Both the position numbers and the translations under genes were made by a program. Of a stretch of 64,000 bases of DNA, positions 1 through 42,732 are shown in pieces. Source of the DNA: Minisyncoccota bacterium (lineage in GTDB: Bacteria; Patescibacteriota; Minisyncoccia; Phycocordibacterales; SBAW01). Below the pieces are notes generated by a model. The model made no database searches and was not told the DNA's origin. It saw nothing but the letters and a program-made list of their open reading frames with translations. The first letter of the stretch is position 1. Every line of letters begins with the position of its first letter. The stretch covers positions 21,057-85,056 of the forward strand of contig JAGOUZ010000001.1 in assembly GCA_018060985.1 (NCBI GenBank). The letters are read 5' to 3'.

Positions 1-201
1 GGAATTGCTGCACTGATTCTGTGCCTCTTCCGACCGCACAATTACCCTGATGTCTTCAACTCCAGCCTCGCCCTCCTGCTTCTGGAGTCGAGCGATGTCC
101 AAGCTCAGTTCCTCATATTCGGGCTCATGATGTTTGCGGAGGGGTTCGTTGGTGGAGCAGTCTATTTCTACTGCTCTGCCATGCCGGTAGAACGCCAATG
201 A
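1..201 (+). CDS. 3' end of an upstream membrane-protein gene (partial, open from window start)
   Basis: 66 codons with no stop in frame 1, hydrophobic translation (GIAALILCLF...), stop at 199-201 overlapping next ATG (ATGA coupling). Confidence 0.3.
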   Translation, partial: GIAALILCLFRPHNYPDVFNSSLALLLLESSDVQAQFLIFGLMMFAEGFVGGAVYFYCSAMPVERQ

Positions 202-380
202 AGCTCTGCAAACGATGCAAAGGGGCAGGCTCGCTCACCCGCCCCAAGAAAGGCATACCCGTGCGCAATTGGTTCAAAAATTGTACCAACTGCGCGGGCA
301 CAGGAATGCGCCCCGCTCTACGCTACCTGCGGATAGCCGACCGCAAGCCCTACGAATACCTCCAGCCGCCGATGATCTAA
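198..380 (+). CDS. small zinc-ribbon-like protein (CxxC...CxxC), 60 aa
   Basis: ORF track; two CxxC pairs (CKRC, CTNC); start overlaps upstream stop. Confidence 0.35.
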   Translation: MKLCKRCKGAGSLTRPKKGIPVRNWFKNCTNCAGTGMRPALRYLRIADRKPYEYLQPPMI

Positions 381-2165: not shown

Positions 2166-3824
2166 TACTACTTTAGGCAAATCCAAATGCCCGAGCGAAT
2201 CGCTAAACGTAGAACCTACTTTTTTGCCAGGGTTAAATATGTTTAGGGGGTCAAAGATATTTTTTACTTCATGAAAGAGCGCGTACATCGCAGGGCCAAA
2301 CATCTTTTCTACATAGGGCGTCCTTATAAACCCGTCATTGTGCTCCCCGCTTATCGAGCCCTTATACTCCACCACCAGGTCGTACACCTTATGACTTAGC
2401 TCATCTATGGTTTTGGCTGTTGTGGGGTCGTTAGGGTCAACCAGCGGAATGATGTGGAAGTTACCGTCGCCTACATGGCCCGCAATCGTGTAGGTCAGTT
2501 TGTAGGTGCTCATGATGGCTTCGAGCTTAGGTAAGAATTCCGAAAATTTAAGCGGGTTAACCACAAAGTCGTCTATAAACGGCGCCGTTCGTTTGCCGCG
2601 CACCTTCTTGCGCAACAAGTTAAAGCTCTCCCGACGGATTGTCCAATACTTGCGCGCCTTGGCCTCGTTTTTGGCAACACGTACGCCGATTTTCTTATTA
2701 CTTTTTTTGATCACCTGTGCCAACGCCTCTGCTTTTTTTAAAGCTTCGGCCTGACTGTGTTCACGGAATTCGGCCATTAAGACGAGCTTAGGCACGCCTC
2801 CGGTTAACACCATAAACACTTCGGGCAAGAATGAGAAACCTAGCTTAATAATGCCCGCCTTCATCTGCGCGGCAAACTCGGGGAAATATTTTACTGCTAA
2901 TTGGAAGGTATGGTCGTCGTACGACTCAAAGCTGTCGGGACTGTACTTCAACACTTGGGTGATGACGTCGCCCAACCCATCGAGCGAGCTAAGAAACATC
3001 ACCGTCATAGCTGCATAGGGCTTAGGATGTACGAGCTTGAACTTAATCTTGGTGGTAATTCCTAGAGTTCCTTGAGCCCCCACCATCAGCCGCGCCAGGT
3101 TAAGTGAGTTCTTGCCATCTCCAATGTCCCAAATAGCATAGCCGGAAGAATTTTTTTCTACTTGTGGCTTGCTCGCCTCTATAATTTTCTTATGCTCGGG
3201 CGTTCCGACCAATGCGGACATTTTGCGGTAGATTTCGCCCTCAAAACTCTGTTCTGCCAGCTTGCGCTGAAGAGCCTCCCCTTCCAGATTCATAAGAGTG
3301 TGTACCTGCCCGTCGCTTAACACCACTTCAAGCTCCTCTACATAGCGCGCGGTTTTGCCGTATTTAAGGTTTTTCTCACCGCCAGAATTGTTACCCACCA
3401 TCCCGCCTACGGCACACAACTCGCGACTTGCGGTGTAGCTCGGCAATTCTAGATTCTGTTTTTTTGTTTCTTTATCAAAATCTCTAAAGTACATTCCTGG
3501 CTCTACGCGCGCAGACATACCTTCCATACCCAAAAACTTGTTTAGATATTTAGTCGTATCAAGCACAATAGAATCCGTTAGCGGCCCGCCCGACATGCAG
3601 GTGCCTGCAGCGCGCGCCGTTACAGAGATATGGGTTTTAGAAGCCTCCTTCTTTTTTTGTGATACCAACTGCACTACCTTTGCAATATCTTCATTGTTCT
3701 TAGGGTATACCGCTACCTCAGGCTTGAGCACAAAAAGGCTCGCATCGCGCGAGAGCTTCTCAAGCACCTCTGCAGTGTCAGATGTTTCAACCCCGAGGCT
3801 TTTGAGCTCGTCTAACAGTGCCAT
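2157..3824 (-). CDS. FAD-linked oxidase (GlcD/D-lactate dehydrogenase-like)
   Basis: FAD-binding PCMH-type motifs (GGMVGNNSGGEKNLKYGKTARYV), 555 aa. Confidence 0.8.
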   Translation of the reverse strand: MALLDELKSLGVETSDTAEVLEKLSRDASLFVLKPEVAVYPKNNEDIAKVVQLVSQKKKEASKTHISVTARAAGTCMSGGPLTDSIVLDTTKYLNKFLGMEGMSARVEPGMYFRDFDKETKKQNLELPSYTASRELCAVGGMVGNNSGGEKNLKYGKTARYVEELEVVLSDGQVHTLMNLEGEALQRKLAEQSFEGEIYRKMSALVGTPEHKKIIEASKPQVEKNSSGYAIWDIGDGKNSLNLARLMVGAQGTLGITTKIKFKLVHPKPYAAMTVMFLSSLDGLGDVITQVLKYSPDSFESYDDHTFQLAVKYFPEFAAQMKAGIIKLGFSFLPEVFMVLTGGVPKLVLMAEFREHSQAEALKKAEALAQVIKKSNKKIGVRVAKNEAKARKYWTIRRESFNLLRKKVRGKRTAPFIDDFVVNPLKFSEFLPKLEAIMSTYKLTYTIAGHVGDGNFHIIPLVDPNDPTTAKTIDELSHKVYDLVVEYKGSISGEHNDGFIRTPYVEKMFGPAMYALFHEVKNIFDPLNIFNPGKKVGSTFSDSLGHLDLPKVVKK

Positions 3825-4347
3825 TTACCTCAGATTTTATCACGAAGCGCCACGGCTTAAGTGCGTACTCCCCAGCATAGCCAATTCCAATACGCGGTGT
3901 GCGGGCAATCTGCCGAGGCGAAATCTTTACTCCCCTGTCTTCAATCCACAACCCTGCCTTCTCGCCAAGGACTTTATGGTTGAGAGATTTATCTATTGAA
4001 AGTGCTTTAGTTAAGCGCGCAGGACCAACCACATCTCCCGCCCCTCTAATCAAAATAGCCGCCGGGTACCCCTTCTTGCCGCAGACCACATTGAGCATCC
4101 AGTGTATGCCGTAGGTAAAGTACACGTAGATAGTGCCTGCAGTATCAAACATGGGCGTATTACGCGGCGTTTGCCCCCGGTGTGCATGATTAGCTTGGTC
4201 CTTAGGGCCATCATACGCCTCAACTTCTGTAATCATCAGCGCGATTTCTTTGCGCCCAACTTTCCGCACCAAATACTTCCCCAACAGCTCTTTTGCCACA
4301 GTCAGAGCCGGCCTATCAAAAAACTCCGAACCTAAAACTTTGTTCAT
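3787..4347 (-). CDS. mpg: DNA-3-methyladenine glycosylase (Mpg/AAG family)
   Basis: Mpg-family motifs EVEAYDG, DQANHAHRG, YVYFTYGIH. Confidence 0.8.
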   Translation of the reverse strand: MNKVLGSEFFDRPALTVAKELLGKYLVRKVGRKEIALMITEVEAYDGPKDQANHAHRGQTPRNTPMFDTAGTIYVYFTYGIHWMLNVVCGKKGYPAAILIRGAGDVVGPARLTKALSIDKSLNHKVLGEKAGLWIEDRGVKISPRQIARTPRIGIGYAGEYALKPWRFVIKSEVNGTVRRAQKPRG

Positions 4348-4350
4348 TAG

Positions 4351-4422
4351 TGACCCTACGGGGATTCGAACCCCGATTTGCGCCGTGAGAGGGCGCCGTC
4401 CTAACCATTAGACGATAGGGCC
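4351..4422 (-). tRNA. tRNA-Glu (anticodon CTC by manual folding)
   Basis: minus-strand cloverleaf: acceptor GGCCCTA/TAGGGTC, T-arm GGGGTTCGAATCCCC, anticodon stem GCGCC/GGCGC with loop CTCTCAC. Confidence 0.75.
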
Positions 4423-4604
4423 AAACTGCGTTTGGCCATGTAATCTTCGCTCGTTCGGAAAAGAAAACAAGCTTTCTTTTCTCTCACTCACTCGATTATA
4501 GGGCCTTAGTTCAACACAATAAAACAAAAACTGGTAAAAAGAAAGACCTGCCACTGCTTAGTTTTCAAAGCATTTCAGTCGGGATACTATGGGGCTATCA
4601 ATAG

Positions 4605-5612
4605 TTGCATTGTATGTATATAGCTATGCAAAATTTCTGGCACCAGTATCGAATCCACGCCCTGCTCGTTATGGGTGCTTTTGCTCTCGGATTTCTTGCT
4701 GCCATGACCACGTCGGTACAGACGCGCGACACAGATGATCAAGCAATACGCGAGTACGACACCCGCTATCAGTTTATCCATCCCCTACTTATCTGTCAGG
4801 TAGACGAAAATGAGGAGGCAGGAGAGCTTACTTCGCTTGACCAAAAAGTGGGCCGTTTAATCAATGCCTCACAAGATGATGGAAAAATTATTTCTGCCTC
4901 GGTCTATTATCGCGACCTCAACTCAAACCGCTGGATGGGAGTCAATGAGTTAGAGTTATACGAGCCCGCAAGCCTGCTAAAAGTTCCCATCATGATGACC
5001 TATTTAAAACAAGTAGGGACTGATCCAGACATACTCGAAACAGTGTACCCCTATGAACTGCGTGAGGAAGCAAAAGACAAGTTAGTACAAAAGCCCATAC
5101 TGGTTCCGAACAAGTCATATACCGTACTCGACCTTATCCGCGGCATGATTATCCAATCTGACAACAGTGCGAAAGATATTTTGGAAGAGCACGCCGACCA
5201 GAAATCTCTTGACCAGACCTATCACATCCTTGGACTTAAGGACCCATACGAGAGCGAGAGCGGGCTGTACCAGCTTTCTACAAAAAGCTACGCACTCTTC
5301 TTCCGCGTACTTTATAACGGCACCTATCTCGGCCGCCGCATGTCTAACACCGCTCTGCAAATACTTTCTGAATCTGAATTCGTTTTGGGGCTGCGAGCTG
5401 GTACTCCGGAAAATATTGCAGTGGCCCACAAGTATGGTGTGCGCGGACTTACAGAAAGCAATGGAACAGAAGGTGTAGAACTGAGCGACTGCGGCATTGT
5501 GTATCACCCCGATTCACCCTACCTGTTGTGTGTGATGACTCATGGCACCGACCCGTACGTGTTGGCAGGTGTTATTAAAGACGTTGCTGAGACAGTGTAT
5601 AAAGAAATCTAG
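4605..5612 (+). CDS. class A beta-lactamase-like serine hydrolase with N-terminal TM
   Basis: SxxK (SLLK), SDN loop (QSDNSA) about 60 aa later, KxG (KYG) motif. Confidence 0.6.
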   Translation: MHCMYIAMQNFWHQYRIHALLVMGAFALGFLAAMTTSVQTRDTDDQAIREYDTRYQFIHPLLICQVDENEEAGELTSLDQKVGRLINASQDDGKIISASVYYRDLNSNRWMGVNELELYEPASLLKVPIMMTYLKQVGTDPDILETVYPYELREEAKDKLVQKPILVPNKSYTVLDLIRGMIIQSDNSAKDILEEHADQKSLDQTYHILGLKDPYESESGLYQLSTKSYALFFRVLYNGTYLGRRMSNTALQILSESEFVLGLRAGTPENIAVAHKYGVRGLTESNGTEGVELSDCGIVYHPDSPYLLCVMTHGTDPYVLAGVIKDVAETVYKEI

Positions 5613-10892: not shown

Positions 10893-12437
10893 TTATTGAG
10901 TTACGTCTTTGAGTCTTTGCACTACAAACTCTTTTTTGAGTGACGAAAGGAACCATCCTGCCTGTGGACCCGATGTTTTATCTAAAAACGAACGGTAAAT
11001 TGCACCAAACAGCTCTGCTGGCGTAATTTTTTGAGTTTCTTTTATATCGTGAAGCTTTTTATGCAACTCTTCTCCACCTGGCATTGCCGGAGCAATTTCA
11101 ATAAAGCTTAAGAGCTCTCGCAGGGCTGCTTTTTGAGTGTCGTTAAGCGAGCGCGCTGCTTCAGGAGTAGATTCCTGCAGCTTAAAGACAAACTTCTCTG
11201 GTGCGTACTGCTCTAACCAGCGCTTTGCATACATTGCGCGCTCATCAAGCTCGGCTTTTTCGGCATCAGGAAACGACGTATAGAGGTCCATATGCGGCAT
11301 CTGCACCATAAATGCCACTTGGCTAAAGCGTGGCAGTACTGATTGCGCGGGAATCTTCCGGTCAGGATGTATCAGCTCAAACAGCCGTGCATAATCGTCT
11401 TTTGTGTCAGTCCAATACCCTGCCGCCAACTTGTCATATTGATCGTAGAGCACGGGTATAGTGTCGCCTTCTGGATCAAAGTTAAATGCTTGGTTAATTT
11501 CTTTCCCCATGAGCGCAAGACGGAAGATCTTTGCCGGCACGAGTTCAGAAATTTCTTTGGCGCTGCTTCCCCGCCCCTTGCTAGACGACATCTTCTTGCC
11601 GCCAACCAAAAAGAACTCATACGGCGCATCCATCGGTGCATCGTACTCAAATATTTCTTTAGCAATATGTGCAGCCACATCTCTCGCGCCGCCCTTGGTC
11701 GAGTGGTCTTTACCGGCGCCTTCTACCATAACGCCCACCACTTTCCATTTTGCCGGCCACTCAACTTTGAACGGGAACTTTGCCTTGCCGCCAAACGGAG
11801 AGACTTTGCCTTCGTGTGAGCAACCTTGCGCCCACTTCACCATCGTGGGTTCGCATTTGTACGACACCTCGCTGCCATCCCATGCAAACACGCGGGTTGT
11901 GCCTACTTTGCCGCACTGCTCACAAATAACCGCAAGTGGAAACCAATCTTCTGGCTTTTGTGAGCCAGAAACTTCTTTATAGATCCGGCGAATATCAGCA
12001 GCATGGTCGAGCGCTATGCGAATCACTTCATCCATCTTCCCCGCAAAGTAGAGCTCGCTCACGTTGTAGAACGTAGGAGTAAAACCTGTTTTTGTGATTA
12101 CCTCTTTAAACTCTTCTGCAAAATATTCTGCGAAGTTTTTTGCCTTGCCATCTGGCGATGGGATATTCCGAAGTGGCTGACCCATATACTGCCGAAAATC
12201 TTCAGGCAAGTATTCTGGAAACCCGTCCATCGGGTCCATGTCGTTAAACTCATAGTTAAAAGTGTTGCCTACACCCTGTTCGGTAAGCGCCTCGGCTATT
12301 GCTCCGTGTATGGCCACGCCGCGCATAGAGCCGACGTGCACACGGCCAGAAGGCGTCTTTTCGTCACGAATAAGGATTTCCTTTCCCTTTCCGTAGCGTT
12401 CAGTAATTTCGCCGGCAAGCCGGTCTGCCCAAAACAT
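10893..12437 (-). CDS. lysK: class I lysyl-tRNA synthetase
   Basis: class I LysRS architecture, HIGH-like (HVGSMRG) and KMSKS-like (KMSSSKG) motifs, 514 aa. Confidence 0.85.
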   Translation of the reverse strand: MFWADRLAGEITERYGKGKEILIRDEKTPSGRVHVGSMRGVAIHGAIAEALTEQGVGNTFNYEFNDMDPMDGFPEYLPEDFRQYMGQPLRNIPSPDGKAKNFAEYFAEEFKEVITKTGFTPTFYNVSELYFAGKMDEVIRIALDHAADIRRIYKEVSGSQKPEDWFPLAVICEQCGKVGTTRVFAWDGSEVSYKCEPTMVKWAQGCSHEGKVSPFGGKAKFPFKVEWPAKWKVVGVMVEGAGKDHSTKGGARDVAAHIAKEIFEYDAPMDAPYEFFLVGGKKMSSSKGRGSSAKEISELVPAKIFRLALMGKEINQAFNFDPEGDTIPVLYDQYDKLAAGYWTDTKDDYARLFELIHPDRKIPAQSVLPRFSQVAFMVQMPHMDLYTSFPDAEKAELDERAMYAKRWLEQYAPEKFVFKLQESTPEAARSLNDTQKAALRELLSFIEIAPAMPGGEELHKKLHDIKETQKITPAELFGAIYRSFLDKTSGPQAGWFLSSLKKEFVVQRLKDVTQ

Positions 12438-15685: not shown

Positions 15686-16741
15686 TTAGGAGATATCGTC
15701 GTCATGTTCTAAAAATACGTCGCGGTGCGCCTCTGGATTCTCCAAAATAACTCCGGTGCCGCGAGCGACAGCGGTCAACGGGTCGTCAGCAACCATAACC
15801 GGCACCTTGAGCCATTGTGTTAAAAGCGAGTCGAGACCTTTTAGCTGGGCCCCTCCACCCACCAAAATAATACCGTTGCGCATAATGTCAGAAAGAATTT
15901 CAGGCGGCGTAGTTTCGAGGACCTCACGCACGCTTTCAATCAATGTGTCTACAGACGTAGAAATAGCTTCGCGAATATCAGAGTCCGTAATAATAACCTC
16001 GCGCGGCAGGCCGGTAATGAGGTCACGTCCTCGTATAACCGCCTCAAGATGACTTTGTTCTTCGATAACGGATCCGATGGCCATCTTAACGGACTCGGCC
16101 GTCTTTTCGCCGATCAGCATTTTAAACTCGCTACGCACGTGGGAAATAATGTCCTGGTCGAGCTTGTCGCCGGCAACGCGCAAGTTCTTCGCCCGGACAA
16201 TGCCTCCGAGCGAAATAACCGCAATGTCGGTGGTGCCGCCCCCAATGTCGACAATCATGCTGCCGAGCGCTTCTTTAACTGGCAAGCGGATACCGAGCGC
16301 GGCGAGCATCGGCTCCTCGACAATATGCACCTCGCGGGCGCCGGCGTTTTGTGCAGCGTCTTTTACCGCGCGGATCTCCACGTTCGTAATCCCCGACGGT
16401 ACGCCAATGACCGCGCGAGGCCCAAGCAGCTTTTTAGACACGCCTTGTGCGCGGTTTATGAGGTACGCGAGCATTTCTTCGGTTGCCTCAAAGTCAGAGA
16501 CCACGCCATCAACGAGCGGCTTAACGGCAATTAAGTGCCCGGGTGTACGGCCAAGCATTTGTTTGGCACTGGTACCCACCGCCACTACCTGTCCGGTTTT
16601 CTGGTTAAGGGCTACCACTGACGGCTCTGCGACGACAATCCCCTTGCCGCGCAAATACACAAGCGTGTTAGCCGTACCGAGATCAATCCCTACGTCATTC
16701 GAAAGCCAAGGCCGAAATTTATCTTTGAGTGCATCAAACAT
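15686..16741 (-). CDS. mreB: rod shape-determining actin homolog MreB
   Basis: actin-fold motifs DLGTANTLV, DIGGGTTD, LVGGGAQL. Confidence 0.9.
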   Translation of the reverse strand: MFDALKDKFRPWLSNDVGIDLGTANTLVYLRGKGIVVAEPSVVALNQKTGQVVAVGTSAKQMLGRTPGHLIAVKPLVDGVVSDFEATEEMLAYLINRAQGVSKKLLGPRAVIGVPSGITNVEIRAVKDAAQNAGAREVHIVEEPMLAALGIRLPVKEALGSMIVDIGGGTTDIAVISLGGIVRAKNLRVAGDKLDQDIISHVRSEFKMLIGEKTAESVKMAIGSVIEEQSHLEAVIRGRDLITGLPREVIITDSDIREAISTSVDTLIESVREVLETTPPEILSDIMRNGIILVGGGAQLKGLDSLLTQWLKVPVMVADDPLTAVARGTGVILENPEAHRDVFLEHDDDIS

Positions 16742-17993
16742 GTGTGGTTAGCCCGCTGATAAGCTCCGAAGCACTCTTGTGTTCCGTCTTGCCAGTCGCG
16801 CGGTGTACGCACTCGAACTTCCCTGCAGTTAAGGTTTTTTCTGACACAACAACGCGCAGCGGCAGACCAAGGAGGTCGCTGTCTGCAAACTTTTCGCCAG
16901 CACGCGCCTCGCGATCGTCCCACAGTACTTCTATACCCGCCTCTGTTAGCTCGCGATAGAGTTCTTTCGCCTCGCTTGATACTTCCGTATTGCCATTTGA
17001 AAGTTCAATGAGATGCACGCGGTACGGTGCAACACTTTCTGGCCAGACAATGCCTTTGTCATCAGAAAGTACTTCGACAATCGTACCCATGAGCCTCCCC
17101 GGGCCAATACCATACGATCCCATCGTGACTGGCTGTGGTTCGCCCTGCTCATCTTTGTAGGTCAGGCCCAGCGCATCAGAAAAGCGCTTTCCAAGCGGGA
17201 AAATATTCCCCACTTCAATTGCCTTCATCTCTTTAAGATCAGACTTAGCTATGCCCAAGTCGGCCATTACTTCGTCGGTGTATACCTCTTTATTAACTGC
17301 AATGTTTTTGCCTTCATGGACATAAATAATATCTTCGCCCGCATCAGAAACTGTCTGGAATTCATCGCTGTACTTCGAGAACGAGCCGCCAGAAGCGAAG
17401 GTACGATACGTTTTGTCGCCAAGCCCCACACGCTTAAATATTTTTAGATACGCTTCTGCGCACGACTCATAAAATGTTCTGAACTCCTCATCGTTACGAC
17501 TAAAGGAGTAGAGGTCTTTCATTATAAATTCGCGGGAACGCATGATGCCAGACTTGGCACGGAGCTCATTGCGGAACTTTGTCTGAAACTGGTACGCGTA
17601 GCGAGGCAGGTCACGATACGAAGATATATGTTCGCGCATTAAGTTCGTAAGAGGCTCTTCGTGAGTAGGTGCAAGGCCAAGCACCCCTCCGCTTTTGAGC
17701 TCGGTCTTAAACCACACATCAACCTGTTCATCGCTCCAGCGGCCACTCGCCTCCCAATGTTTTGGCTCTTGCAATGTGGTGAGCAACATTTCCTGCCCGC
17801 CTATCTTGTTCATCTCTTCGCGGATCACCCCAATAACTTTTTGGAGCACTCGATACCCGAGCGGCAAATATGTATAAGCACCCGCCATTTCTTTATGTAT
17901 ATATCCGCCTCTTATTAAAAGCTGCGCGTTCTTTGAAACCTCGTCTTTGGGAGCCTCGCGACGAGTCTTAGTAAAAAGCTCTGACTGTCTCAT
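16734..17993 (-). CDS. proS: prolyl-tRNA synthetase (short form without insertion domain)
   Basis: class II aaRS core with ProRS anticodon-binding region, 419 aa. Confidence 0.85.
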   Translation of the reverse strand: MRQSELFTKTRREAPKDEVSKNAQLLIRGGYIHKEMAGAYTYLPLGYRVLQKVIGVIREEMNKIGGQEMLLTTLQEPKHWEASGRWSDEQVDVWFKTELKSGGVLGLAPTHEEPLTNLMREHISSYRDLPRYAYQFQTKFRNELRAKSGIMRSREFIMKDLYSFSRNDEEFRTFYESCAEAYLKIFKRVGLGDKTYRTFASGGSFSKYSDEFQTVSDAGEDIIYVHEGKNIAVNKEVYTDEVMADLGIAKSDLKEMKAIEVGNIFPLGKRFSDALGLTYKDEQGEPQPVTMGSYGIGPGRLMGTIVEVLSDDKGIVWPESVAPYRVHLIELSNGNTEVSSEAKELYRELTEAGIEVLWDDREARAGEKFADSDLLGLPLRVVVSEKTLTAGKFECVHRATGKTEHKSASELISGLTTHV

Positions 17994-18049
17994 ATACGCG
18001 CCATTGTACGGCTAATTATGCAGGGAGGCAAAAGCCACAGGCCAGATAG

Positions 18050-18078
18050 TTGACAATATGTCTAATAGGTGGTATACT
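18050..18078 (+). promoter_or_regulatory. sigma70-like promoter TTGACA-N17-TATACT
   Basis: consensus hexamers in AT-rich host-like DNA just upstream of the GC-rich CDS. Confidence 0.45.
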
Positions 18079-18124
18079 CTTTCTGCCTCAATTCAGGGGT
18101 GGACAATATAGCGAGATCATCGAC

Positions 18125-18652
18125 ATGGGCAAGCAGTTCGGGAAGAAGAAGCGTCCGGAACATCCCCCGCTCGACAAGGCGGTGGAGATCATCGGCATCG
18201 TCACCCTCTGGAACGGGGGCAAGGGCTATGGATTCGTCCAGGCCAATGCCGACCAGCCGTACACCGGCCAGGCGTTCCTGCATGTGACCAAGCTCGGCGA
18301 CCGGGACATCGACATCGGCGTCGGCTCCCCGATCACGTGCAAGGTCGAGCCGGCCAAGAAGATCGGCGATGCGCCGAGTGTCGTCCATGTCCGCGAGATC
18401 GGATCGAGGAGGGCGACCCACAAGATCAAGTTCTTCGACAAGACCAAGGGCTTCGGCTTCATCGAGAATCTCGGCGGCGGCAAGGACATGTTCCTCCACA
18501 TCAATGCGGTCGAGCGGTCCAATCTCGATCCGAGCGACCTCCAGGAAGGAACCCCGGTGATCATCCTCCGCACGGAGGATCAGCCCAAGGGGCCGGCTGC
18601 CTACATCATCGAACTCGCCGCGGTCGGTGCCGACATGGTCGGCGCCAGTTAG
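18125..18652 (+). CDS. tandem cold-shock-domain protein (2x CSD), GC-rich foreign-looking gene
   Basis: two CSD cores (GIVTLWNGGKGYGFVQ; KIKFFDKTKGFGFIE); GC3 near 90% versus genome about 48% GC; mirror ORFs on the opposite strand are artefacts of high GC. Confidence 0.8.
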   Translation: MGKQFGKKKRPEHPPLDKAVEIIGIVTLWNGGKGYGFVQANADQPYTGQAFLHVTKLGDRDIDIGVGSPITCKVEPAKKIGDAPSVVHVREIGSRRATHKIKFFDKTKGFGFIENLGGGKDMFLHINAVERSNLDPSDLQEGTPVIILRTEDQPKGPAAYIIELAAVGADMVGAS

Positions 18653-18676
18653 CCAGTACACCAACCGTGCAGTGCA

Positions 18677-18705
18677 GGGAGTCGCGAATGCGACTCCCTT
18701 TTTTA
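18677..18705 (+). terminator. rho-independent terminator
   Basis: gggagtcgcgaatgcgactccc + ttttttattt. Confidence 0.6.
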
Positions 18706-18706
18706 T

Positions 18707-19792
18707 TTATCCAACCAAACGCACGATGTCGTGATATGACACGACCAGCATCAAGGTAATAAGGAGCCCAAAGCCAGCAAGCGTCAGCGCCATCGTAATC
18801 TTTTTGGAAACTGGACGGCGCAACACGCTTTCGACAGCAATAATAAGCAGTCTGCCACCATCAAGGCCAGGTATCGGAAGCAGGTTAATGATAGCGAGGT
18901 TAATGGAAATAACTGCAGTAAGCACCACCGCCGCTGCAAAGCCGTCGGTTACAGCGCCTGCGCCAATATTTACAATACCGATTGGCCCGGCAACAGTAGT
19001 AAAGTCGGCAACACCGCGTGCAATCTGGACAAAGAACGATGCGAGACCCTGTGCGGTGCCTACCGTCATTTCATATGTAAGCTTTGCACCCTGCACAAGC
19101 GCGAGGTGGACCGGGAGTTTAAGTACGCCGACATCGCCTAGCTGTACGCCGAGCGCTTTGCGGCCCTCTACAAAACCTTCTACTGGGCGCGCAATAAATG
19201 TCTTTTCTTCGTCATCGCGAAGTACTGTGAGTATGATGCTCTCTTCTCCATGTGCGGCGATAAATGACTGCACGTCGTCTGCTGTCTCAAACGTTTGAGG
19301 TGCAATCATGCCGGTGCCCACCGTTTTAACAACATCTTCTGCTAATATCCCTGCCTTTGCTGCGGGCGAGTCTGGCAAGACTGCAGTGATCATTGTTTTA
19401 ACGTCACTCACCTGCCCTGCGTCTGCGCGATCTGCAGCTGAGGGCAGACCCACCATGTAGCCCAGACTGAGGACCAGCCAGGCAAAAAGGATGTTCATCA
19501 CAATGCCTGCAACTACTACTGCCGCCTGTGTGTAGCGCGGCTTTGAGGCAAAACTTCTTGGATCAGAAGCGTTTTCGTTATGATTCTCGCCAAAAATACG
19601 CACAAAGCCACCAAACGGCAGCCAGTTAAAGGAGTACTCGGTCTCCCCTTTTTTAATGGCAAAGAGGCGCGGTGGGAAAAAGATCCCGAACTCCTCTACT
19701 TTAATCTTAGAGAGCTTGGCGACAATAAAGTGGCCGAACTCGTGCACCAAAATAAGTGCAACGAGGATGAGGATGAATATAATAAAAGTCAT
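18707..19792 (-). CDS. rseP: site-2 protease RseP (M50) with PDZ domain
   Basis: HExxH (HEFGHF), multi-TM, PDZ-like middle region, LDGG motif. Confidence 0.8.
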   Translation of the reverse strand: MTFIIFILILVALILVHEFGHFIVAKLSKIKVEEFGIFFPPRLFAIKKGETEYSFNWLPFGGFVRIFGENHNENASDPRSFASKPRYTQAAVVVAGIVMNILFAWLVLSLGYMVGLPSAADRADAGQVSDVKTMITAVLPDSPAAKAGILAEDVVKTVGTGMIAPQTFETADDVQSFIAAHGEESIILTVLRDDEEKTFIARPVEGFVEGRKALGVQLGDVGVLKLPVHLALVQGAKLTYEMTVGTAQGLASFFVQIARGVADFTTVAGPIGIVNIGAGAVTDGFAAAVVLTAVISINLAIINLLPIPGLDGGRLLIIAVESVLRRPVSKKITMALTLAGFGLLITLMLVVSYHDIVRLVG

Positions 19793-21819: not shown

Positions 21820-22389
21820 TTGAACAACAAGGGAGTATACAACGTGAGCAAGATTCGCCTCCTTATCGCCTACTTCCATGCAGGCTTTATGGACCTTGCG
21901 GTGGGCGTCCTTCTGATAAACGCCCTTACTGCAGCATTCGGGATCCCGTTTGAATGGTGGCACCTACCCCTTGGTGCAGCCCTCACCGTGCTTCCGGACT
22001 TCGATATCTTCTGGCCGCTCCTGCGAACTGTGTTTGGCGGGACCGCACGCACCGAAGACCATCATAAGACATGGCTCCATTTCCCGATCGTGATGCTTCC
22101 TGCGATTGGACTCGTAGGCTATGCGCTCGGCGGATGGGAGTGGGCTACCATTACTGTGGTCGGCGTGCTCGCGCACTATATCCACGACGCTGCCACGATC
22201 AAAAACGGTGGCGTGTACTGGTTCTTCCGCATAGAACGTACGAGGTGGACAAACTCTGAAATACCGACAGGAACCGGAGAAGAATGGACAAGAAAAAACT
22301 GGCTGCAATGGAGCCAGTTGTCGGTGATCGAAACAACGATTGGAATATGCGCACTCTTAGGCGCCCTGGCCATCATCGCTTTGCGATGA
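21820..22389 (+). CDS. YdjM-like membrane-bound metal-dependent hydrolase (DUF457-like)
   Basis: polytopic membrane protein with His-rich motifs (HYIHD). Confidence 0.5.
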   Translation: MNNKGVYNVSKIRLLIAYFHAGFMDLAVGVLLINALTAAFGIPFEWWHLPLGAALTVLPDFDIFWPLLRTVFGGTARTEDHHKTWLHFPIVMLPAIGLVGYALGGWEWATITVVGVLAHYIHDAATIKNGGVYWFFRIERTRWTNSEIPTGTGEEWTRKNWLQWSQLSVIETTIGICALLGALAIIALR

Positions 22390-23386
22390 TGGCCTTTTTG
22401 TACGTATCTAGGTGTTCGAGCGCTATACCGGTGCCGCGTGCCACGCAAAACAGCGGGTCAGCAGCAACCGTCGCCTTAACACCCGTGCGGCGCAGCACCA
22501 GTTCTGGGAAGTTTCGAAGTTGAGACGTGCCACCGGTCATAATAATGCCGCGGTCAATAATATCAGCTGCAAGTTCAGGCGGTGTCTCTTGGAGCACGTC
22601 GCGAATGGCTTTGATTATCTCGCGCAGCTCTTTCCCCATACTTTTAACAATGTCGTTCGTTTTGAGCTCCATCGAGCGCGGCAGGCCGGTAATAAAGTCG
22701 CGGCCGCGCACGCTCATCACAATATCTTCCTCGACAGGCACGGCGGAGCCGATACCTATTTTTATATTCTCCGCCGTCTTGTCGCCTATCGCTAAGTTAA
22801 AAGATTTCTTCATATAGTCGGCAATCGCGTGGTCGAGCTTGTCTCCCGCACACTTAACCGACGTACTTGCCACAATGCCGCCAAGCGAAATAACCGCAAC
22901 GTCAGTCGTGCCGCCGCCAATGTCGACAACCATGTTGCCACGCGCCTCGTTAATCGGCACGCCCGCGCCAATTGCTGCGAGCACCGACTCTTTAACCACA
23001 TACGCGCTCCTAGCGCCGGCGCGCATTGCAGCCTCCACGACTGCGCGGCGCTCGGTCGAGGTAACGCCTGTTGGTACCGAGACCATTACTTCTGGTTTAA
23101 AAAGGCCGTACTTTGGCATCGCCTTGCGGATAAAGTAGCGAAGCATTGCTTCGGTTACGCGGTAGTCGGCTATAACACCGTCGCGCATTGGGCGGTAGGC
23201 CACGATCTCGTCTGGTGTGCGGCCGATCATCTCTTTAGCCTCCATCCCCACTGCCAAGATCGTTCTATCAAATTGAGATACGGCTACTACCGAAGGCTCA
23301 TTTAAAACCACGCCTCTCCCTGGCATAAAAACAAGAGTGTTTGCGGTGCCGAGGTCTATGCCGAGCTTTGGAGTAAAGAATGACAT
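22373..23386 (-). CDS. mreB: second MreB/actin-like paralog
   Basis: DLGTANTLVF, DIGGGTTDVAVI, MTGGTSQL; start trimmed to MSFFTPKLGIDLG. Confidence 0.85.
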   Translation of the reverse strand: MSFFTPKLGIDLGTANTLVFMPGRGVVLNEPSVVAVSQFDRTILAVGMEAKEMIGRTPDEIVAYRPMRDGVIADYRVTEAMLRYFIRKAMPKYGLFKPEVMVSVPTGVTSTERRAVVEAAMRAGARSAYVVKESVLAAIGAGVPINEARGNMVVDIGGGTTDVAVISLGGIVASTSVKCAGDKLDHAIADYMKKSFNLAIGDKTAENIKIGIGSAVPVEEDIVMSVRGRDFITGLPRSMELKTNDIVKSMGKELREIIKAIRDVLQETPPELAADIIDRGIIMTGGTSQLRNFPELVLRRTGVKATVAADPLFCVARGTGIALEHLDTYKKAIIAKR

Positions 23387-23485
23387 CGGAGCAATAATAC
23401 GTGAGAAGTGGTAACGAAACAATTATTTGACAATTTCAGACTTCGACGTATTCTGCATATTAGCAGTTCACCCTGGAGGAACGTT

Positions 23486-37278: not shown

Positions 37279-38085
37279 ATGCGTGCAATTCTCGCTGCGC
37301 TTTTTTTCTGCCTCGCAACTTCTGCAAAGGCCTTCGGCCCCGAGTGCGCGACAGACCCCCTGCCCCACCTGCTGCGCACGACCGTGATGCTCGAGCGCAT
37401 GTTCGACGAAGACGAGCGATACTTCGATCAAAAAGAATTTAAGTGGGTCGAAGGCATCCAGGGCACGGCGTGGTTTGTCGACAAGCAGACCATCGCTACG
37501 ATCGGCCATGTTGCCACGAGCGCAAAGCTGGATGGCAGCTGGAAGGAAGTGACACTTGCCTGGAGTGACGGCAAGGACGAGGAGACCTCGCTTGCACTGC
37601 AGGTTCACGTGCAGCTCAAGGACATCATCGTCGGCCCCGAAAACTTGGAGCCGATCATGACACTGGAACTTGAAATCCCCATCGACGACGCCTTTGTGGC
37701 CCCCATTCGCTACACACCACTCCAGAACAAAGAGGCGGTGGTGGGGCTAGGGTATCGAGATGGAGCACTCCGGTTCGCCCACGGGTACCTTAACTATCCG
37801 AAGCCGAGCAGCGAACCTTCTGACAGCGATCCACCGCCCAAGCCCTACCTGCCGTTCGAGCTCTTTGATGCAGACGAAAGCAAGAACGACCGGTACGTGT
37901 TTGACCACGGCGCGTCGGGGTCTCCGCTCTTTGACTGCGATGGCAATGTGGTGGCAGTTGTGCAGGCCATGATGGAGTGGCCCTTCCCTGCCGGAAAGGT
38001 TTTTGGCAGAACCACTACCACGTCCGCATGGGGCGACGCCAACATGACCGGCGTCTCAACCGCAAACATGGGCAAGCAGAAGTAA
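37279..38085 (+). CDS. secreted trypsin-like (S1/PA clan) peptidase-domain protein, GC-rich
   Basis: signal peptide MRAILAALFFCLATSAKAF; His region TIGHVAT; GDSGGP-equivalent GASGSPLFDC; GC about 58% with GC-rich third positions. Confidence 0.55.
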   Translation: MRAILAALFFCLATSAKAFGPECATDPLPHLLRTTVMLERMFDEDERYFDQKEFKWVEGIQGTAWFVDKQTIATIGHVATSAKLDGSWKEVTLAWSDGKDEETSLALQVHVQLKDIIVGPENLEPIMTLELEIPIDDAFVAPIRYTPLQNKEAVVGLGYRDGALRFAHGYLNYPKPSSEPSDSDPPPKPYLPFELFDADESKNDRYVFDHGASGSPLFDCDGNVVAVVQAMMEWPFPAGKVFGRTTTTSAWGDANMTGVSTANMGKQK

Positions 38086-40372: not shown

Positions 40373-40447
40373 TCCGCGGTAGCTCAATGGTAGAGCAGCT
40401 CCCTGTTAAGGAGTTGGTTGTAGGTTCGAGTCCTACCCGCGGAGCCA
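40373..40447 (+). tRNA. tRNA-Asn (GTT), CCA encoded
   Basis: acceptor TCCGCGG/CCGCGGA, D-arm AGCTCAATGGTAGAGC, anticodon loop CTGTTAA, T-arm GTAGGTTCGAGTCCTAC; TATAAT at about 40350. Confidence 0.9.
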
Positions 40448-42016
40448 GTTGGGATTAGCGTCGCCAAAAGCGACGCTTTCCCGTTTAGGAGAGCCACCTT
40501 TAGGAGGTTCGAACCGGTCGTTTTTTCGTCTTACCGAATTTGAGACGAGAATCATCGGCAAAAGCGCAATATCGGTGTCAATGCTGATTATTTTGTCTTT
40601 CAGGAGGAGGTTCGAACCGAGGGCGGATAAAAAGACCTTTCGGGCATGCTGGCCCCGTTCGGTGAAGGCTTCTCTGGCGTCGCTTGCGAACGTGAGCACC
40701 TTGTCGGCCGTCTGCAGCCAACTGTCCACCCGGGCGTCGGTGTCATTCAAAAGTTCGTGGAGTTTTGCTTTCTCCTGATTTATCTCCGACTTCTTTCGTG
40801 CAAATTCTTCTTCGCTTATTTCTCCCGAAGCTCGCATGTCGATGAGCGCGTCGAGCTTCTTTACGCATGCCTCGTAGTTCTGTTGCTGGTTGGCAAGAAT
40901 CGCATTGCGGTCAGCGGCCTCCCGACCATTCTCGTTCTGCAGCCACTTCATTGCCCACTCGTGGAAATCCTCTGGTGGCTTGACCCGGCCAAGAGTATCC
41001 TCGATCTGTTTGTCCAGCTCCTTCACCTCGATGCATTTCTGCTTGCAGGGACCTTTGCGTTTCGTGCAGTGGTAATAAATATATCGGTGGATGTTGCCGT
41101 TCTTATTCCTCTTGGTCTTGTGCTCGGCCGTGACCATGCATCCGCACTCTCCACAGCGGATCATGCCCGTGTAGGCAAAGCTGTGCTCCTCGGGCTTTGG
41201 CTTGCTGCCACGGCCTAGAAGCGCCTGCATGCGGTCGTACTCCTCGCGTGTGATCATTGGCTCGTGCTTGCCCTTGTGCCAGTTGCCCGAGCCTTGCGGC
41301 CACTCGAACCAGCCGTAGTAGAAGGGATTGTAGAGCACGCGGTAGAAACCGCTTCGCGCGAGCTTCTTTAAGCCCCACTGGTTTACTGCGATCTCATGCA
41401 CCCTCGGCGTTGTGTATGTGCCGCTGAGGAGCATGTCGAACATTTTTCGGATGATCGGAAACATCTTCGGGTCTTTGCGTATCGTCTTGAATCCTTTCAT
41501 TTTGTCCGGCGTGTTCATGTAACCGATTGGAGCCGGGCCTGGATGCCAGCCCATCTCTACTTTGCGCCGGAGGCCGCGCTTTACGTCGACGCCTTTGTTG
41601 TCGTTCTCCAATTTCGCCTGGCTGCAGAGGAGGTTGAGAAGGAATTTGTCGTTCGGCGTATTTTTGTAAGCCTGTCCGGGCGTGCGAATGTCCTGAAGCC
41701 TGTTCTGGTCCATGAGATAGACCAGATAGCCGGTGTCGACGGAATTGCGCGAGAGGCGGTTCGGGTGCCAGGCGATGATGCCTTCGGCTTCGCCCTTTTC
41801 GATGCGCTTAATCATCGCGTTGAAGATCTCGCGCCCGGGCGCTTTGGCCGAGTACGATTCTTCGAGGCGCTCCACCACATGGAGCTTCTCTCTTTTTGCG
41901 AGTGCTTCCAATTCGCTCTTTTGCGAGTCTATCGAAAGTACCTGTCTATCTTCTTGTTCGGACGATTTGCGAGCGTAGAGGAAGTACTTGTGCTTTTGCT
42001 GTACTTCCTGGTTCAT
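40433..42016 (-). CDS. large serine recombinase (resolvase/invertase N-domain + recombinase domain + zinc ribbon)
   Basis: catalytic region YARKSSEQEDRQVLSIDSQ, recombinase domain, zinc ribbon CGECGC...YYHC...C, 527 aa; 3' end overlaps tRNA-Asn 3' end. Confidence 0.85.
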   Translation of the reverse strand: MNQEVQQKHKYFLYARKSSEQEDRQVLSIDSQKSELEALAKREKLHVVERLEESYSAKAPGREIFNAMIKRIEKGEAEGIIAWHPNRLSRNSVDTGYLVYLMDQNRLQDIRTPGQAYKNTPNDKFLLNLLCSQAKLENDNKGVDVKRGLRRKVEMGWHPGPAPIGYMNTPDKMKGFKTIRKDPKMFPIIRKMFDMLLSGTYTTPRVHEIAVNQWGLKKLARSGFYRVLYNPFYYGWFEWPQGSGNWHKGKHEPMITREEYDRMQALLGRGSKPKPEEHSFAYTGMIRCGECGCMVTAEHKTKRNKNGNIHRYIYYHCTKRKGPCKQKCIEVKELDKQIEDTLGRVKPPEDFHEWAMKWLQNENGREAADRNAILANQQQNYEACVKKLDALIDMRASGEISEEEFARKKSEINQEKAKLHELLNDTDARVDSWLQTADKVLTFASDAREAFTERGQHARKVFLSALGSNLLLKDKIISIDTDIALLPMILVSNSVRRKNDRFEPPKGGSPKRESVAFGDANPNWLRG

Positions 42017-42018
42017 GG

Positions 42019-42732
42019 CTATTGTGTGAGGTTAAATTCCTTCAGCGCGTTCCTGTATAAATCGATCGTGTTGTTGTAGCTGAAGATGTATCCGTTTGAG
42101 GCGATGCCGACTTGGATGAATGGGGCGCGTTCTGCTTCTGCGCCGTTCGGCAATTCGCTTGCGTAGCCCATGTCATTCCAGGTGAAGAAGAGGTTGCTGC
42201 CCTCCGGTCGGCCGGTCTTGCTGTTGTTCTCGAAGGTAAGCGTCGACTCTACCTGTGCGAAGTTCGGATATACCTTTGCGAGGAATGCGCGGACCTGCTG
42301 CTCAAGTTCTGCGGATGTTTTTGCGTTGCCGGTGTAATCCACCTCCCGGTGGAATGCGACGACCTGGTTTGTCTTGGGGTCTACCTCGGCGTACTCGTTA
42401 TCGGTCGCGCCTCTGAATTTGAGTGCCATTTCGTCGACGAGTCCGACGCTCTTTACTTCGTTGACCTGCTGCACGATGCCGAAGTTTGCGTAGCCTCCGT
42501 AGGTCGGCTGGGCGCTAAAGTCGTATTGTGCGCCTCCGGCTGCCTCTACCGCGCTCTTAAGAGATTTCGTGGCCTGGCTTAGGTCTGTCTGGCTCACAGC
42601 CCCCTCTCTTGGGGCCATATCGCCTGAATTCGGGACCTTATGCCCGAAGAGGTAGTAACTGCCGACCGCGAGTACTGCGATGGCGACGAGTGCTATTACG
42701 CCGTTTGTTGCTGTTTTTGTCATTGTGTTCAC
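42019..42732 (-). CDS. membrane-anchored/secreted hypothetical protein (237 aa), GC-elevated
   Basis: N-terminal TM, no recognisable domain; stop abuts recombinase start. Confidence 0.5.
   Translation of the reverse strand: MNTMTKTATNGVIALVAIAVLAVGSYYLFGHKVPNSGDMAPREGAVSQTDLSQATKSLKSAVEAAGGAQYDFSAQPTYGGYANFGIVQQVNEVKSVGLVDEMALKFRGATDNEYAEVDPKTNQVVAFHREVDYTGNAKTSAELEQQVRAFLAKVYPNFAQVESTLTFENNSKTGRPEGSNLFFTWNDMGYASELPNGAEAERAPFIQVGIASNGYIFSYNNTIDLYRNALKEFNLTQ

Follow-up and report, generated by a model that had tools for sequence, protein, structure and literature searches.

We analysed a 64-kb window of a Minisyncoccota bacterium genome (assembly GCA_018060985.1, contig JAGOUZ010000001.1, positions 21,057 to 85,056 of the forward strand). 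The window is this whole stretch, and coordinates refer to it unless another locus is named. Between proS and an rseP-like gene it carries a coding sequence (CDS) for a protein of 175 amino acids (aa) with two cold-shock domains (CSDs) in tandem, whose third codon positions are almost entirely G or C. The following features lie at this locus.

16734..17993, minus strand: proS, prolyl-tRNA synthetase (ProRS), the left flank (Pfam tRNA-synt_2b and HGTP_anticodon)
18003..18031, minus strand: proS promoter, TTGCCT-17-TACAAT, ending 9 nucleotides (nt) 5' of the proS ATG (promoter scan)
18034..18696, plus strand: variable slot of 663 bp with promoter, 5' untranslated region (UTR), CDS and terminator stem (homology breaks against relatives)
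18050..18078, plus strand: sigma-70-type promoter, TTGACA-17-TATACT, with an extended -10 (TG at 18070-18071; promoter scan, 11/12)
18083..18102, plus strand: predicted 5'-proximal mRNA stem-loop, CTGCCTC / AATTCA / GGGGTGG, then GGACA (minimum free energy (MFE) fold)
18113..18116, plus strand: weak Shine-Dalgarno-like GAGA, 8 nt 5' of the ATG (sequence inspection)
18125..18652, plus strand: tandem-CSD CDS, 175 aa (open reading frame (ORF) list, Pfam and AlphaFold2 (AF2) model), identical to NCBI MBP9710687.1
18676..18705, plus strand: intrinsic terminator, a 10-bp stem with a loop of 4 and a T-run adjoining the rseP stop codon (terminator scan)
18707..19792, minus strand: rseP-like site-2 protease gene, the right flank (Peptidase_M50 and PDZ)
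18062..18664, minus strand: antisense ORF of 200 aa, an artefact (ORF list; without Pfam match)
18226-18573, opposite strand to the CDS: second antisense ORF, an artefact (ORF list)

The CSD gene is the lone plus-strand gene within a run of minus-strand housekeeping genes, with PBP2, mreC, mreB and proS on one side and rseP, frr, nth and a holB-like gene on the other. It would form a monocistronic, self-contained unit: the 175-aa ORF is preceded by a strong promoter with an extended -10 and by a short 5'UTR containing a stem-loop, and is followed by an intrinsic terminator. The terminator scan placed the hairpin and T-run at 18676-18699, with 7 GC pairs in the 10-bp stem.

We observed a GC content of 62.7% in the CDS (GC1, GC2 and GC3, the values at the three codon positions, were 0.61, 0.40 and 0.87), compared to 50.2% for the window as a whole. 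GC3 of the 45 remaining window ORFs with 150 aa or more averaged 0.543 (standard deviation (sd) 0.056, range 0.46-0.72), which places the CSD gene 5.9 sd outside their distribution. When the codons of the protein were redrawn from the codon usage of the window, GC3 was 0.529 ± 0.037 (observed z = 9.3), and the highest value among 20000 redraws was 0.663. Third positions of the gene were 53% C, 34% G, 9% T and 3% A. The counts for ATC (15/15), TTC (8/8), AAG (16/16), CTC (9/10), GTC (10/13) and GGC (15/22) show the same bias; Asn and His favoured T-ending codons.

A 60-nt profile confined the rise to the CDS, with GC at 0.38-0.48 in the promoter and 5'UTR, 0.58-0.70 in the CDS and 0.43-0.50 past 18680. 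The initial annotation, made from the letters alone, had described this gene with a GC3 near 90%, an overall GC of about 62%, a jump limited to the CDS, a host-type TTGACA-17-TATACT promoter, a clean terminator, two tandem CSDs and spurious opposite-strand ORFs, and had proposed GC3 and codon statistics as a check. Our measurements bear out each of these points; its background of about 48% GC was too low for this window. The antisense frame 18062-18664 is stop-free because the sense CDS contains no TTA, CTA or TCA codon. Neither antisense ORF matched a Pfam family, and the ORF at 18062-18664 is a by-product of high sense-strand GC3, not a gene.

We compared the locus with related loci, numbered here with the prefix L (related proteins carry the prefix P). 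In blastn against L083, the sister genome, 82-83% nucleotide identity was continuous to 18033 and resumed at 18697, with none between. Homology of the window to L083, L163, L004, L002 and L003 broke at 18031-18033 and resumed at 18697-18700. These fixed junctions therefore define 18034-18696 as the variable unit. Across ~160 Paceibacteria loci, rseP was usually directly upstream of proS (gap 8-75 bp); in a subset the gap was 0.4-3.7 kb and held unrelated cargo. Four related loci carried a tandem-CSD gene in the slot, as follows (ProRS and MreB values are identities to the window).

L083 (metagenome ProRS search): ProRS 95%, the closest host; tandem-CSD gene in the slot
L002 (P0003 contig): ProRS N-terminus 87%; tandem-CSD gene in the slot, divergent from proS
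L163 (P0005; NCBI JAUPWW010102282): ProRS 83%; order mreC-mreB-proS-[CSD]-rseP-frr
L004 (GTDB-genome ProRS search): ProRS 75%, MreB 94-95%; tandem-CSD gene in the slot

L003 (ProRS 81%) carried other cargo between the two junctions. The boxes of the proS promoter were also found in L083, L002, L003, L004 and L163 and were kept in all relatives with a filled slot; this promoter seems to have taken over once the slot split the ancestral rseP-proS pair. Because it ends only 9 nt from the ATG, the proS mRNA probably has little or no leader. We found no direct or inverted repeats flanking the slot beyond chance.

Tandem-CSD alleles shared the compositional bias of the window gene. GC3 was 0.69-0.87 in the six alleles with flanking sequence, compared to 0.45-0.63 in their flanking genes (z = 4.5-9.3). 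One codon style ran through seven of seven alleles (CTC over CTG, with GGC, AAG, ATC and TTC preferred), and GTC was at least as frequent as GTG in six of the seven. GC1 and GC2 of the alleles were 0.53-0.64 and 0.35-0.43, and lysine outnumbered arginine in 6/7; the K/(K+R) ratio of the window genome was 0.57. A homologue from Azospirillum, a high-GC host, had a GC1 of 0.72, a GC2 of 0.51 and less lysine than arginine. The GC excess of the alleles is purely synonymous, and their amino-acid composition is host-like.

The GC3 of 0.87 resembles that of genomes with 65-70% GC, and the nearest annotated relatives in fold and architecture were alphaproteobacterial two-CSD proteins (30-36% identity). 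Both observations would fit a gene received recently, in one step, from an actinobacterium or proteobacterium of high GC, the donors that the initial annotation had expected, or a contaminant or chimeric assembly, which it had wished to see excluded. A word-index protein search with the window protein matched only the protein itself, and looking it up among contigs by exact match gave no record. We also searched 1.84 billion cluster representatives exhaustively with phmmer; the best matches were no better than E = 1e-22 at 30-40% identity. Neither the word-index nor the phmmer search returned a relative of the window protein above ~40% identity, and no tandem-CSD allele had a relative above ~48% in our searches. 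The actinobacterial matches of ~312 aa, despite strong profile E-values, were generic proteins with four CSDs that score through their repeated domains. The best collinear matches were P0003, P0005, P0022, P0093 and P0096; these share a basic N-tail, a degenerate CSD1 (GSxIxCxV, then a (D/E)KGP motif) and a CSD2 of the type KFFNxxKGFGF...FVHxSALER. The four alleles that we looked up (P0001, P0003, P0005 and P0096) were each a singleton cluster among 15 billion proteins, and the class B alleles defined below were orphans in the searches as well.

The lack of any relative above ~40% identity argues that there was no actinobacterial or proteobacterial donor. The host-like GC1, GC2 and Lys/Arg balance of the alleles and their preference for CTC over CTG are likewise unlike the Azospirillum homologue, and the codon style (CTC over CTG, GTC, AAG) fits core genes of GC-rich Paceibacteria instead. 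The flanks were continuous with the sister genome up to both junctions. Misassembly and contamination are excluded because five independent assemblies show the rseP-[CSD]-proS arrangement. One-step transfer from a high-GC phylum, or an assembly artefact, is thus largely refuted, and we regard it as very improbable.

Coding sequences in the slot diverged far more than the hosts. Tandem-CSD alleles were 27-48% identical in pairs, compared to 75-95% for ProRS, and the rate of nonsynonymous substitution (dN) across comparisons was 0.55-0.84 for the CSD gene and 0.04-0.25 for the flanks. Between the window and L083, CSD dN was 0.80, flank dN was 0.04-0.07 and flank synonymous divergence (dS) was 0.9-1.3, with ~50% identity at four-fold sites. 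We built a neighbour-joining tree of the alleles with 300 bootstraps, at identities of only 30-40%. It grouped L083 with L004 (93% support) and recovered a class A comprising the window, L002, L163, L164, L001 and P0093 (74% support). The window and L083, although sister genomes, carried sister alleles in 0/300 bootstraps. Class A proteins have a basic tail and a Cys motif, and class B proteins (L083 and L004) have neither. Because the two classes depart from the host tree, the coding part appears to have been exchanged among lineages.

Sequences upstream of the CDS behaved differently. They were homologous across the two classes (65% identity between the window and L083, z = 5.9; z = 7.7 between L083 and L004). 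The promoter and 5'UTR therefore look resident, being homologous to the sister genome while the CDS is not. When the window flanks near the slot were compared with class A donors, they stayed closest to L083 up to both junctions. A promoter of the form TTGAC(A/T)-17-TGn-TAnnnT was common to the window, L083, L002 and L163, 45-56 nt 5' of the ATG. At the spacing of the window GAGA, other alleles had AAGGAG or ACGGAG. A hairpin and T-run adjoined the rseP stop codon in 5/5 alleles with downstream sequence.

Single-sequence MFE folds predicted a stem-loop just 3' of the -10 box in five of six alleles, the window included. In a manual register, the set of window, L083 and L004 differed from the set of L002, L163 and L164 at three stem pairs, with both partners of each pair altered. 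The hairpin type (GCCTC in the former set, GCTCGG in the latter) tracked the host clade, not the class of the CDS. Folding-energy z-scores of the allele hairpins were without significance. RNAalifold returned no consensus structure for the MAFFT-aligned UTRs because the alignment shifted the hairpins out of register. Taken together, the evidence for a conserved 5' hairpin is suggestive. A 5'-terminal stem-loop, if real, is expected to stabilise the mRNA. An Rfam scan of the slot in the window and five related loci returned no family, and no long cspA-type 5'UTR or thermosensor.

Vertical descent with extreme divergence in situ would explain the locus without any exchange of alleles. The divergence may have been helped by strong transcription of a head-on gene, or by a recombination hot spot with GC-biased gene conversion. 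The promoter architecture, the 5' hairpin and the terminator are homologous in all alleles, as such descent would predict, and the gene stands alone on the plus strand inside a minus-strand run. With a flank dS of ~1 or more, a near-neutral gene could also fall to ~32% identity. Descent alone, however, would make the window and L083 alleles sisters, which no bootstrap did, and L083 groups with L004 at 93% instead. The basic tail and Cys motif occur in the window, L002, L163, L164, L001 and P0093 and not in the sister genome. GC1 and GC2 are not raised, contrary to what biased conversion would do to a weakly constrained protein. Upstream sequence was 65% conserved, compared to ~50% at the flank four-fold sites, so there was no local hypermutation. 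On this evidence we consider vertical descent without exchange distinctly unlikely.

We favour, with a probability of about 0.55, the reading that an accessory nucleic-acid-binding gene of this Paceibacteria genome has had its coding part swapped among Paceibacteria behind a resident promoter, and that it belongs to a GC3-rich circulating pool. The rseP-proS slot would have been ancestrally empty, with the two genes adjacent and co-directional, and prone to recombination; in one clade it would now be filled with variable cargo. The promoter and 5'UTR would be resident and follow the host lineage, and the coding part would be traded between lineages. The gene would be drawn from a GC3-rich, horizontally circulating Paceibacteria pool with the codon style of GC-rich clade members, and would not be a fresh import from Actinobacteria or Proteobacteria. 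Exchange of the coding part behind a resident promoter and UTR is the simplest reading of the few sequences available. The initial annotation had proposed recent acquisition with promoter capture. Its compositional outlier and its host-type promoter stand, and the segment is present, absent or replaced among relatives; a single simple recent event is not supported, as seven alleles diverged to saturation share the GC3 excess.

Several observations weigh against swapping from a GC3-rich pool. Alleles occurred only in hosts that are not GC-rich, a poor fit with a GC-rich reservoir, and the two GC-rich relatives examined, L019 and L021, had no CSD gene in the slot. Our searches gave no sampled donor or near relative for any allele. 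The slot contained no mobility gene or integrase and was marked by no flanking repeat. Exchange is deduced solely from tree incongruence at 30-40% identity, where long-branch artefacts are possible, and the grouping of the UTRs with the host clade comes from six sequences. Because the flank dS of 0.9-1.3 is near saturation, fast in-situ divergence is possible on rate alone.

The pool is suggested by composition elsewhere in the clade. In the GC-rich Paceibacteria L019 and L021, proS had a GC1 of 0.58-0.59, a GC2 of 0.36-0.39 and a GC3 of 0.81-0.82, with a C3 of 0.42-0.51 and CTC used 25 times against 3-5 for CTG. The slot cargo of L003, L005, L007 and L008 had a GC3 of 0.73-0.77. In the window, a tRNA-Asn gene (40373-40447) adjoins a large serine recombinase (40433-42016; Resolvase, Recombinase, Zn_ribbon_recom), beyond which lies a further ORF (42019-42732). 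Both ORFs had a GC3 of 0.68-0.70, and the region at 41-43 kb showed strong AT skew (-0.3). The segment 40373-42732 is probably an integrated mobile element, and its GC3 indicates that accessory DNA here is GC3-richer than the core. The shared codon style and the GC3-rich unrelated accessory genes together favour a clade gene pool over a CSD-specific cause.

Two further GC3-rich ORFs of the window, unrelated to the CSD gene, also count among its accessory genes. A lone trypsin-like peptidase gene (Trypsin_2; 37279-38085, plus strand) stands among minus-strand genes with a GC3 of 0.72, the second-highest among large window ORFs. A 60-aa zinc-ribbon ORF with two CxxCxGxG-like motifs (198-380, plus strand, opposite to its neighbour) had a GC3 of 0.73 and a weak match to the DnaJ central domain (E = 5e-4).

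An old single import at a flank dS of at least 1 should have decayed towards a GC3 of ~0.53 under a two-state relaxation model, so something appears to keep GC3 high. Continued exchange with GC-rich relatives, selection at the codon level and biased gene conversion could each do so. Biased conversion is disfavoured: in a weakly constrained protein it should also lift GC1 and GC2, and these are not raised.

Codon-level selection could be linked to expression: a native, very highly expressed gene, in which translation or mRNA stability keeps G/C-ending and especially C-ending codons in all alleles, however these arose. Cold-shock proteins (CSPs) are usually very highly expressed. An excess that is synonymous only, with host-like GC1, GC2 and K/R despite fast protein evolution, is what such selection would produce, as are identical codon preferences in seven alleles diverged to saturation and the near-consensus promoter with its extended -10. 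An ordinary 65-aa CSP in a relative with 40% GC also had a raised GC3 (0.51 versus 0.29-0.43 in its neighbours). An Akashi-type test of translational accuracy was nevertheless negative: G/C-ending codons were not associated with conserved residues (0.79 versus 0.78; Mantel-Haenszel odds ratio 0.92). The T-ending preference of Asn and His in the window gene and the high GC3 of unrelated accessory genes (the recombinase island and the ORFan slot cargo) also speak against such selection. No ribosomal-protein, elongation factor (EF-Tu) or chaperonin gene lies within the 64-kb window to serve as a comparison. We hold expression-linked selection to be rather unlikely, though possible.

We next describe the protein itself. 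It consists of a basic N-tail (aa 1-21), CSD1 (aa ~22-91) with the RNP1/RNP2 motifs KGYGFV / AFLHV and Cys72, and CSD2 (aa ~99-165) with KGFGFI / MFLHI. The Pfam CSD family (PF00313) matched two stretches with 53.8 bits (cut-off 27) and also matched the L083 and L004 alleles. The AF2 model (predicted local distance difference test score, pLDDT, 81.7) contained two five-stranded barrels, with strands at 20-30, 35-40, 49-53, 69-75 and 85-91 in the first and at 99-105, 110-115, 122-125, 144-153 and 156-164 in the second. Foldseek with this model ranked the tandem CSD1-2 of Drosophila Unr first, followed by CspA (target-normalised template modelling (TM) score 0.81-0.84 against CspA). The solved structure nearest by sequence was a Rickettsia CSP, and the phmmer matches to CSPs in the PDB covered CSD2. 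The aromatic residues of RNP1 and RNP2 were kept in both domains of all alleles, and other positions varied. Judging from its domains, the protein is most likely an RNA chaperone or stress-type regulator that acts by binding single-stranded RNA or DNA.

This predicted role would resemble that of two-CSD proteins of Alphaproteobacteria such as Caulobacter CspD, which is induced in stationary phase (PMC4830024). This group includes Caulobacter crescentus CspD and CspC and proteins of 160-260 aa from Azospirillum, Rhizobium and Sphingomonadales. Like these, the window protein has tandem CSDs on one small polypeptide with RNP1/RNP2 in both, and its CSD2 has their motif KFFxxxKGFGFI...FxHIxAVERS. 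With Azospirillum, P0057 and P0139 it has in common a Cys in the fourth strand of CSD1 (GxxIxCxV). P0057 matched collinearly over both domains (36% over 146 aa), and Azospirillum and similar proteins matched with 30-35% identity over 73-90% of the query. Unlike the alphaproteobacterial proteins, to which identity rises no higher than ~36%, the class A alleles of the candidate phyla radiation (CPR) have a Lys-rich N-tail and a degenerate CSD1. In the tree they form their own group (74%), separate from a proteobacterial set whose monophyly had 25% support. The CPR alleles also differ in occupying a variable slot and evolving far faster than its flanks. The window protein would represent a CPR-restricted new subfamily of the known two-CSD proteins.

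The single-domain CspA family (E. coli CspA and CspE, B. subtilis CspB) has the same fold, and single-stranded nucleic acid binding is probable for both. The window protein differs in having two domains and 175 aa, compared to about 67-70 aa, and the NCBIfam models for CspA, CspE, CspC and CspD scored it at 38-49 bits, below their cut-offs (115-152). The long 5'UTR and thermosensor of cspA are likewise missing from its Rfam results.

Hyperdiverse alleles at a fixed locus, singletons where looked up and incongruent with the host tree, would also be expected of a conflict gene. Diversifying or frequency-dependent selection, in a contest with phage or host, would then act on a sensor, decoy or effector, comparable to the CSD effectors of type V retrons. 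The nucleic-acid-binding motifs are kept while the remainder varies, and the protein matched the PADLOC CSD_V and NCBIfam retron Se72 effector models. These matches reflect generic CSD similarity, a weak likeness in profile only: the Se72 model gave 41.9 bits against a cut-off of 82, and the retron effectors have one domain where the window protein has two. We found no reverse transcriptase, msr/msd, nuclease or other defence gene near the CSD gene, whose neighbours (proS, mreB, mreC, rseP, frr and nth) are all housekeeping genes. Saturation precludes an estimate of dN/dS. A conflict role strikes us as quite improbable.

A more elaborate and doubtful proposal is a dedicated cassette-exchange locus. 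Here a conserved shell of promoter, hairpin and terminator would drive interchangeable, hyperdiverse tandem-CSD cassettes, kept diverse by frequency-dependent selection in phage/host conflict, with adaptive silent sites restricted to G or C. Such sites could, for example, protect the mRNA from RNases directed at A/U or keep the protein from binding its own message. If this proposal were true, CPR bacteria would be using CSD proteins as a fast-evolving factor in conflict or symbiosis.

The rseP-proS locus is a small replacement islet. As in other replacement islets, its junctions between housekeeping genes are fixed, the slot is empty in many relatives and holds other cargo elsewhere, cargo composition is off that of the core, and alleles and hosts give conflicting trees. 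It differs in being ~0.66 kb with a single gene and no integrase, tRNA or flanking repeats. In addition, its nearest relatives without exception carry a homologous yet hyperdivergent tandem-CSD gene as cargo, and the promoter and UTR ahead of that gene are homologous too. Few bacterial proteins are normally as conserved as those with CSDs, yet in this CPR lineage a two-domain version behaves as a hypervariable accessory gene. Such hypervariability at a fixed slot is unusual, as is a silent-site bias that persists across alleles: sister genomes hold non-sister alleles in the same 0.66-kb slot, and all alleles keep an extreme G/C bias at silent sites. The locus is also a warning that a GC3 outlier need not mean fresh import from a high-GC phylum. 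It offers a compact site for studying gene exchange and the forces on codon composition in uncultured episymbiotic bacteria.

P0139 (JGI 3300059473) is a distant two-CSD relative that has the same Cys motif. Its 7.8-kb contig encodes, next to it, an HNH protein and a Rep_3 plasmid replication initiator, so plasmid-like elements carry tandem-CSD genes as well.

Pfam gave no assignment for the other slot cargo of relatives. The L003 slot (4139-5000) held a 55-aa Cys-rich, GC3-rich ORF (MTDRTETCGNCGREV...) with a promoter-like region and a terminator hairpin, and ~450 nt without a convincing ORF, Rfam family, tRNA or tmRNA (none by ARAGORN). In three relatives at a greater distance, L005 (3606-4928), L007 (3722-4828) and L008 (3739-4830), all on the minus strand, the slot held ORFans of 363-440 aa, divergent from proS and without a Pfam family, with a GC3 of 0.73-0.77 compared to 0.53-0.66 in proS.

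Insertions were observed between the proS ATG and its promoter in two relatives. In L002, an insertion of ~90 nt (639-735) has inverted repeats at its ends (cccgttagagac ... gtctctaacggg) and a duplicated ACGCAT, giving it the look of a miniature inverted-repeat transposable element. L004 carries another palindromic insert at about 2110-2195. L004 is also a mosaic relative to the window in protein identity (mreB 94-95%, rseP 81%, proS 75%). Nucleotide identity of its proS (2197-3456) was 0.54-0.70 in the slot-side 5' two-thirds and 0.79-0.86 at the 3' end, which suggests that a recombination tract extends into this gene.

The window contains two mreB paralogues within 7 kb (15686-16741 and 22373-23422, minus strand). 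It also encodes a class I archaeal-type lysyl-tRNA synthetase (tRNA-synt_1f; 10893-12437, minus strand).

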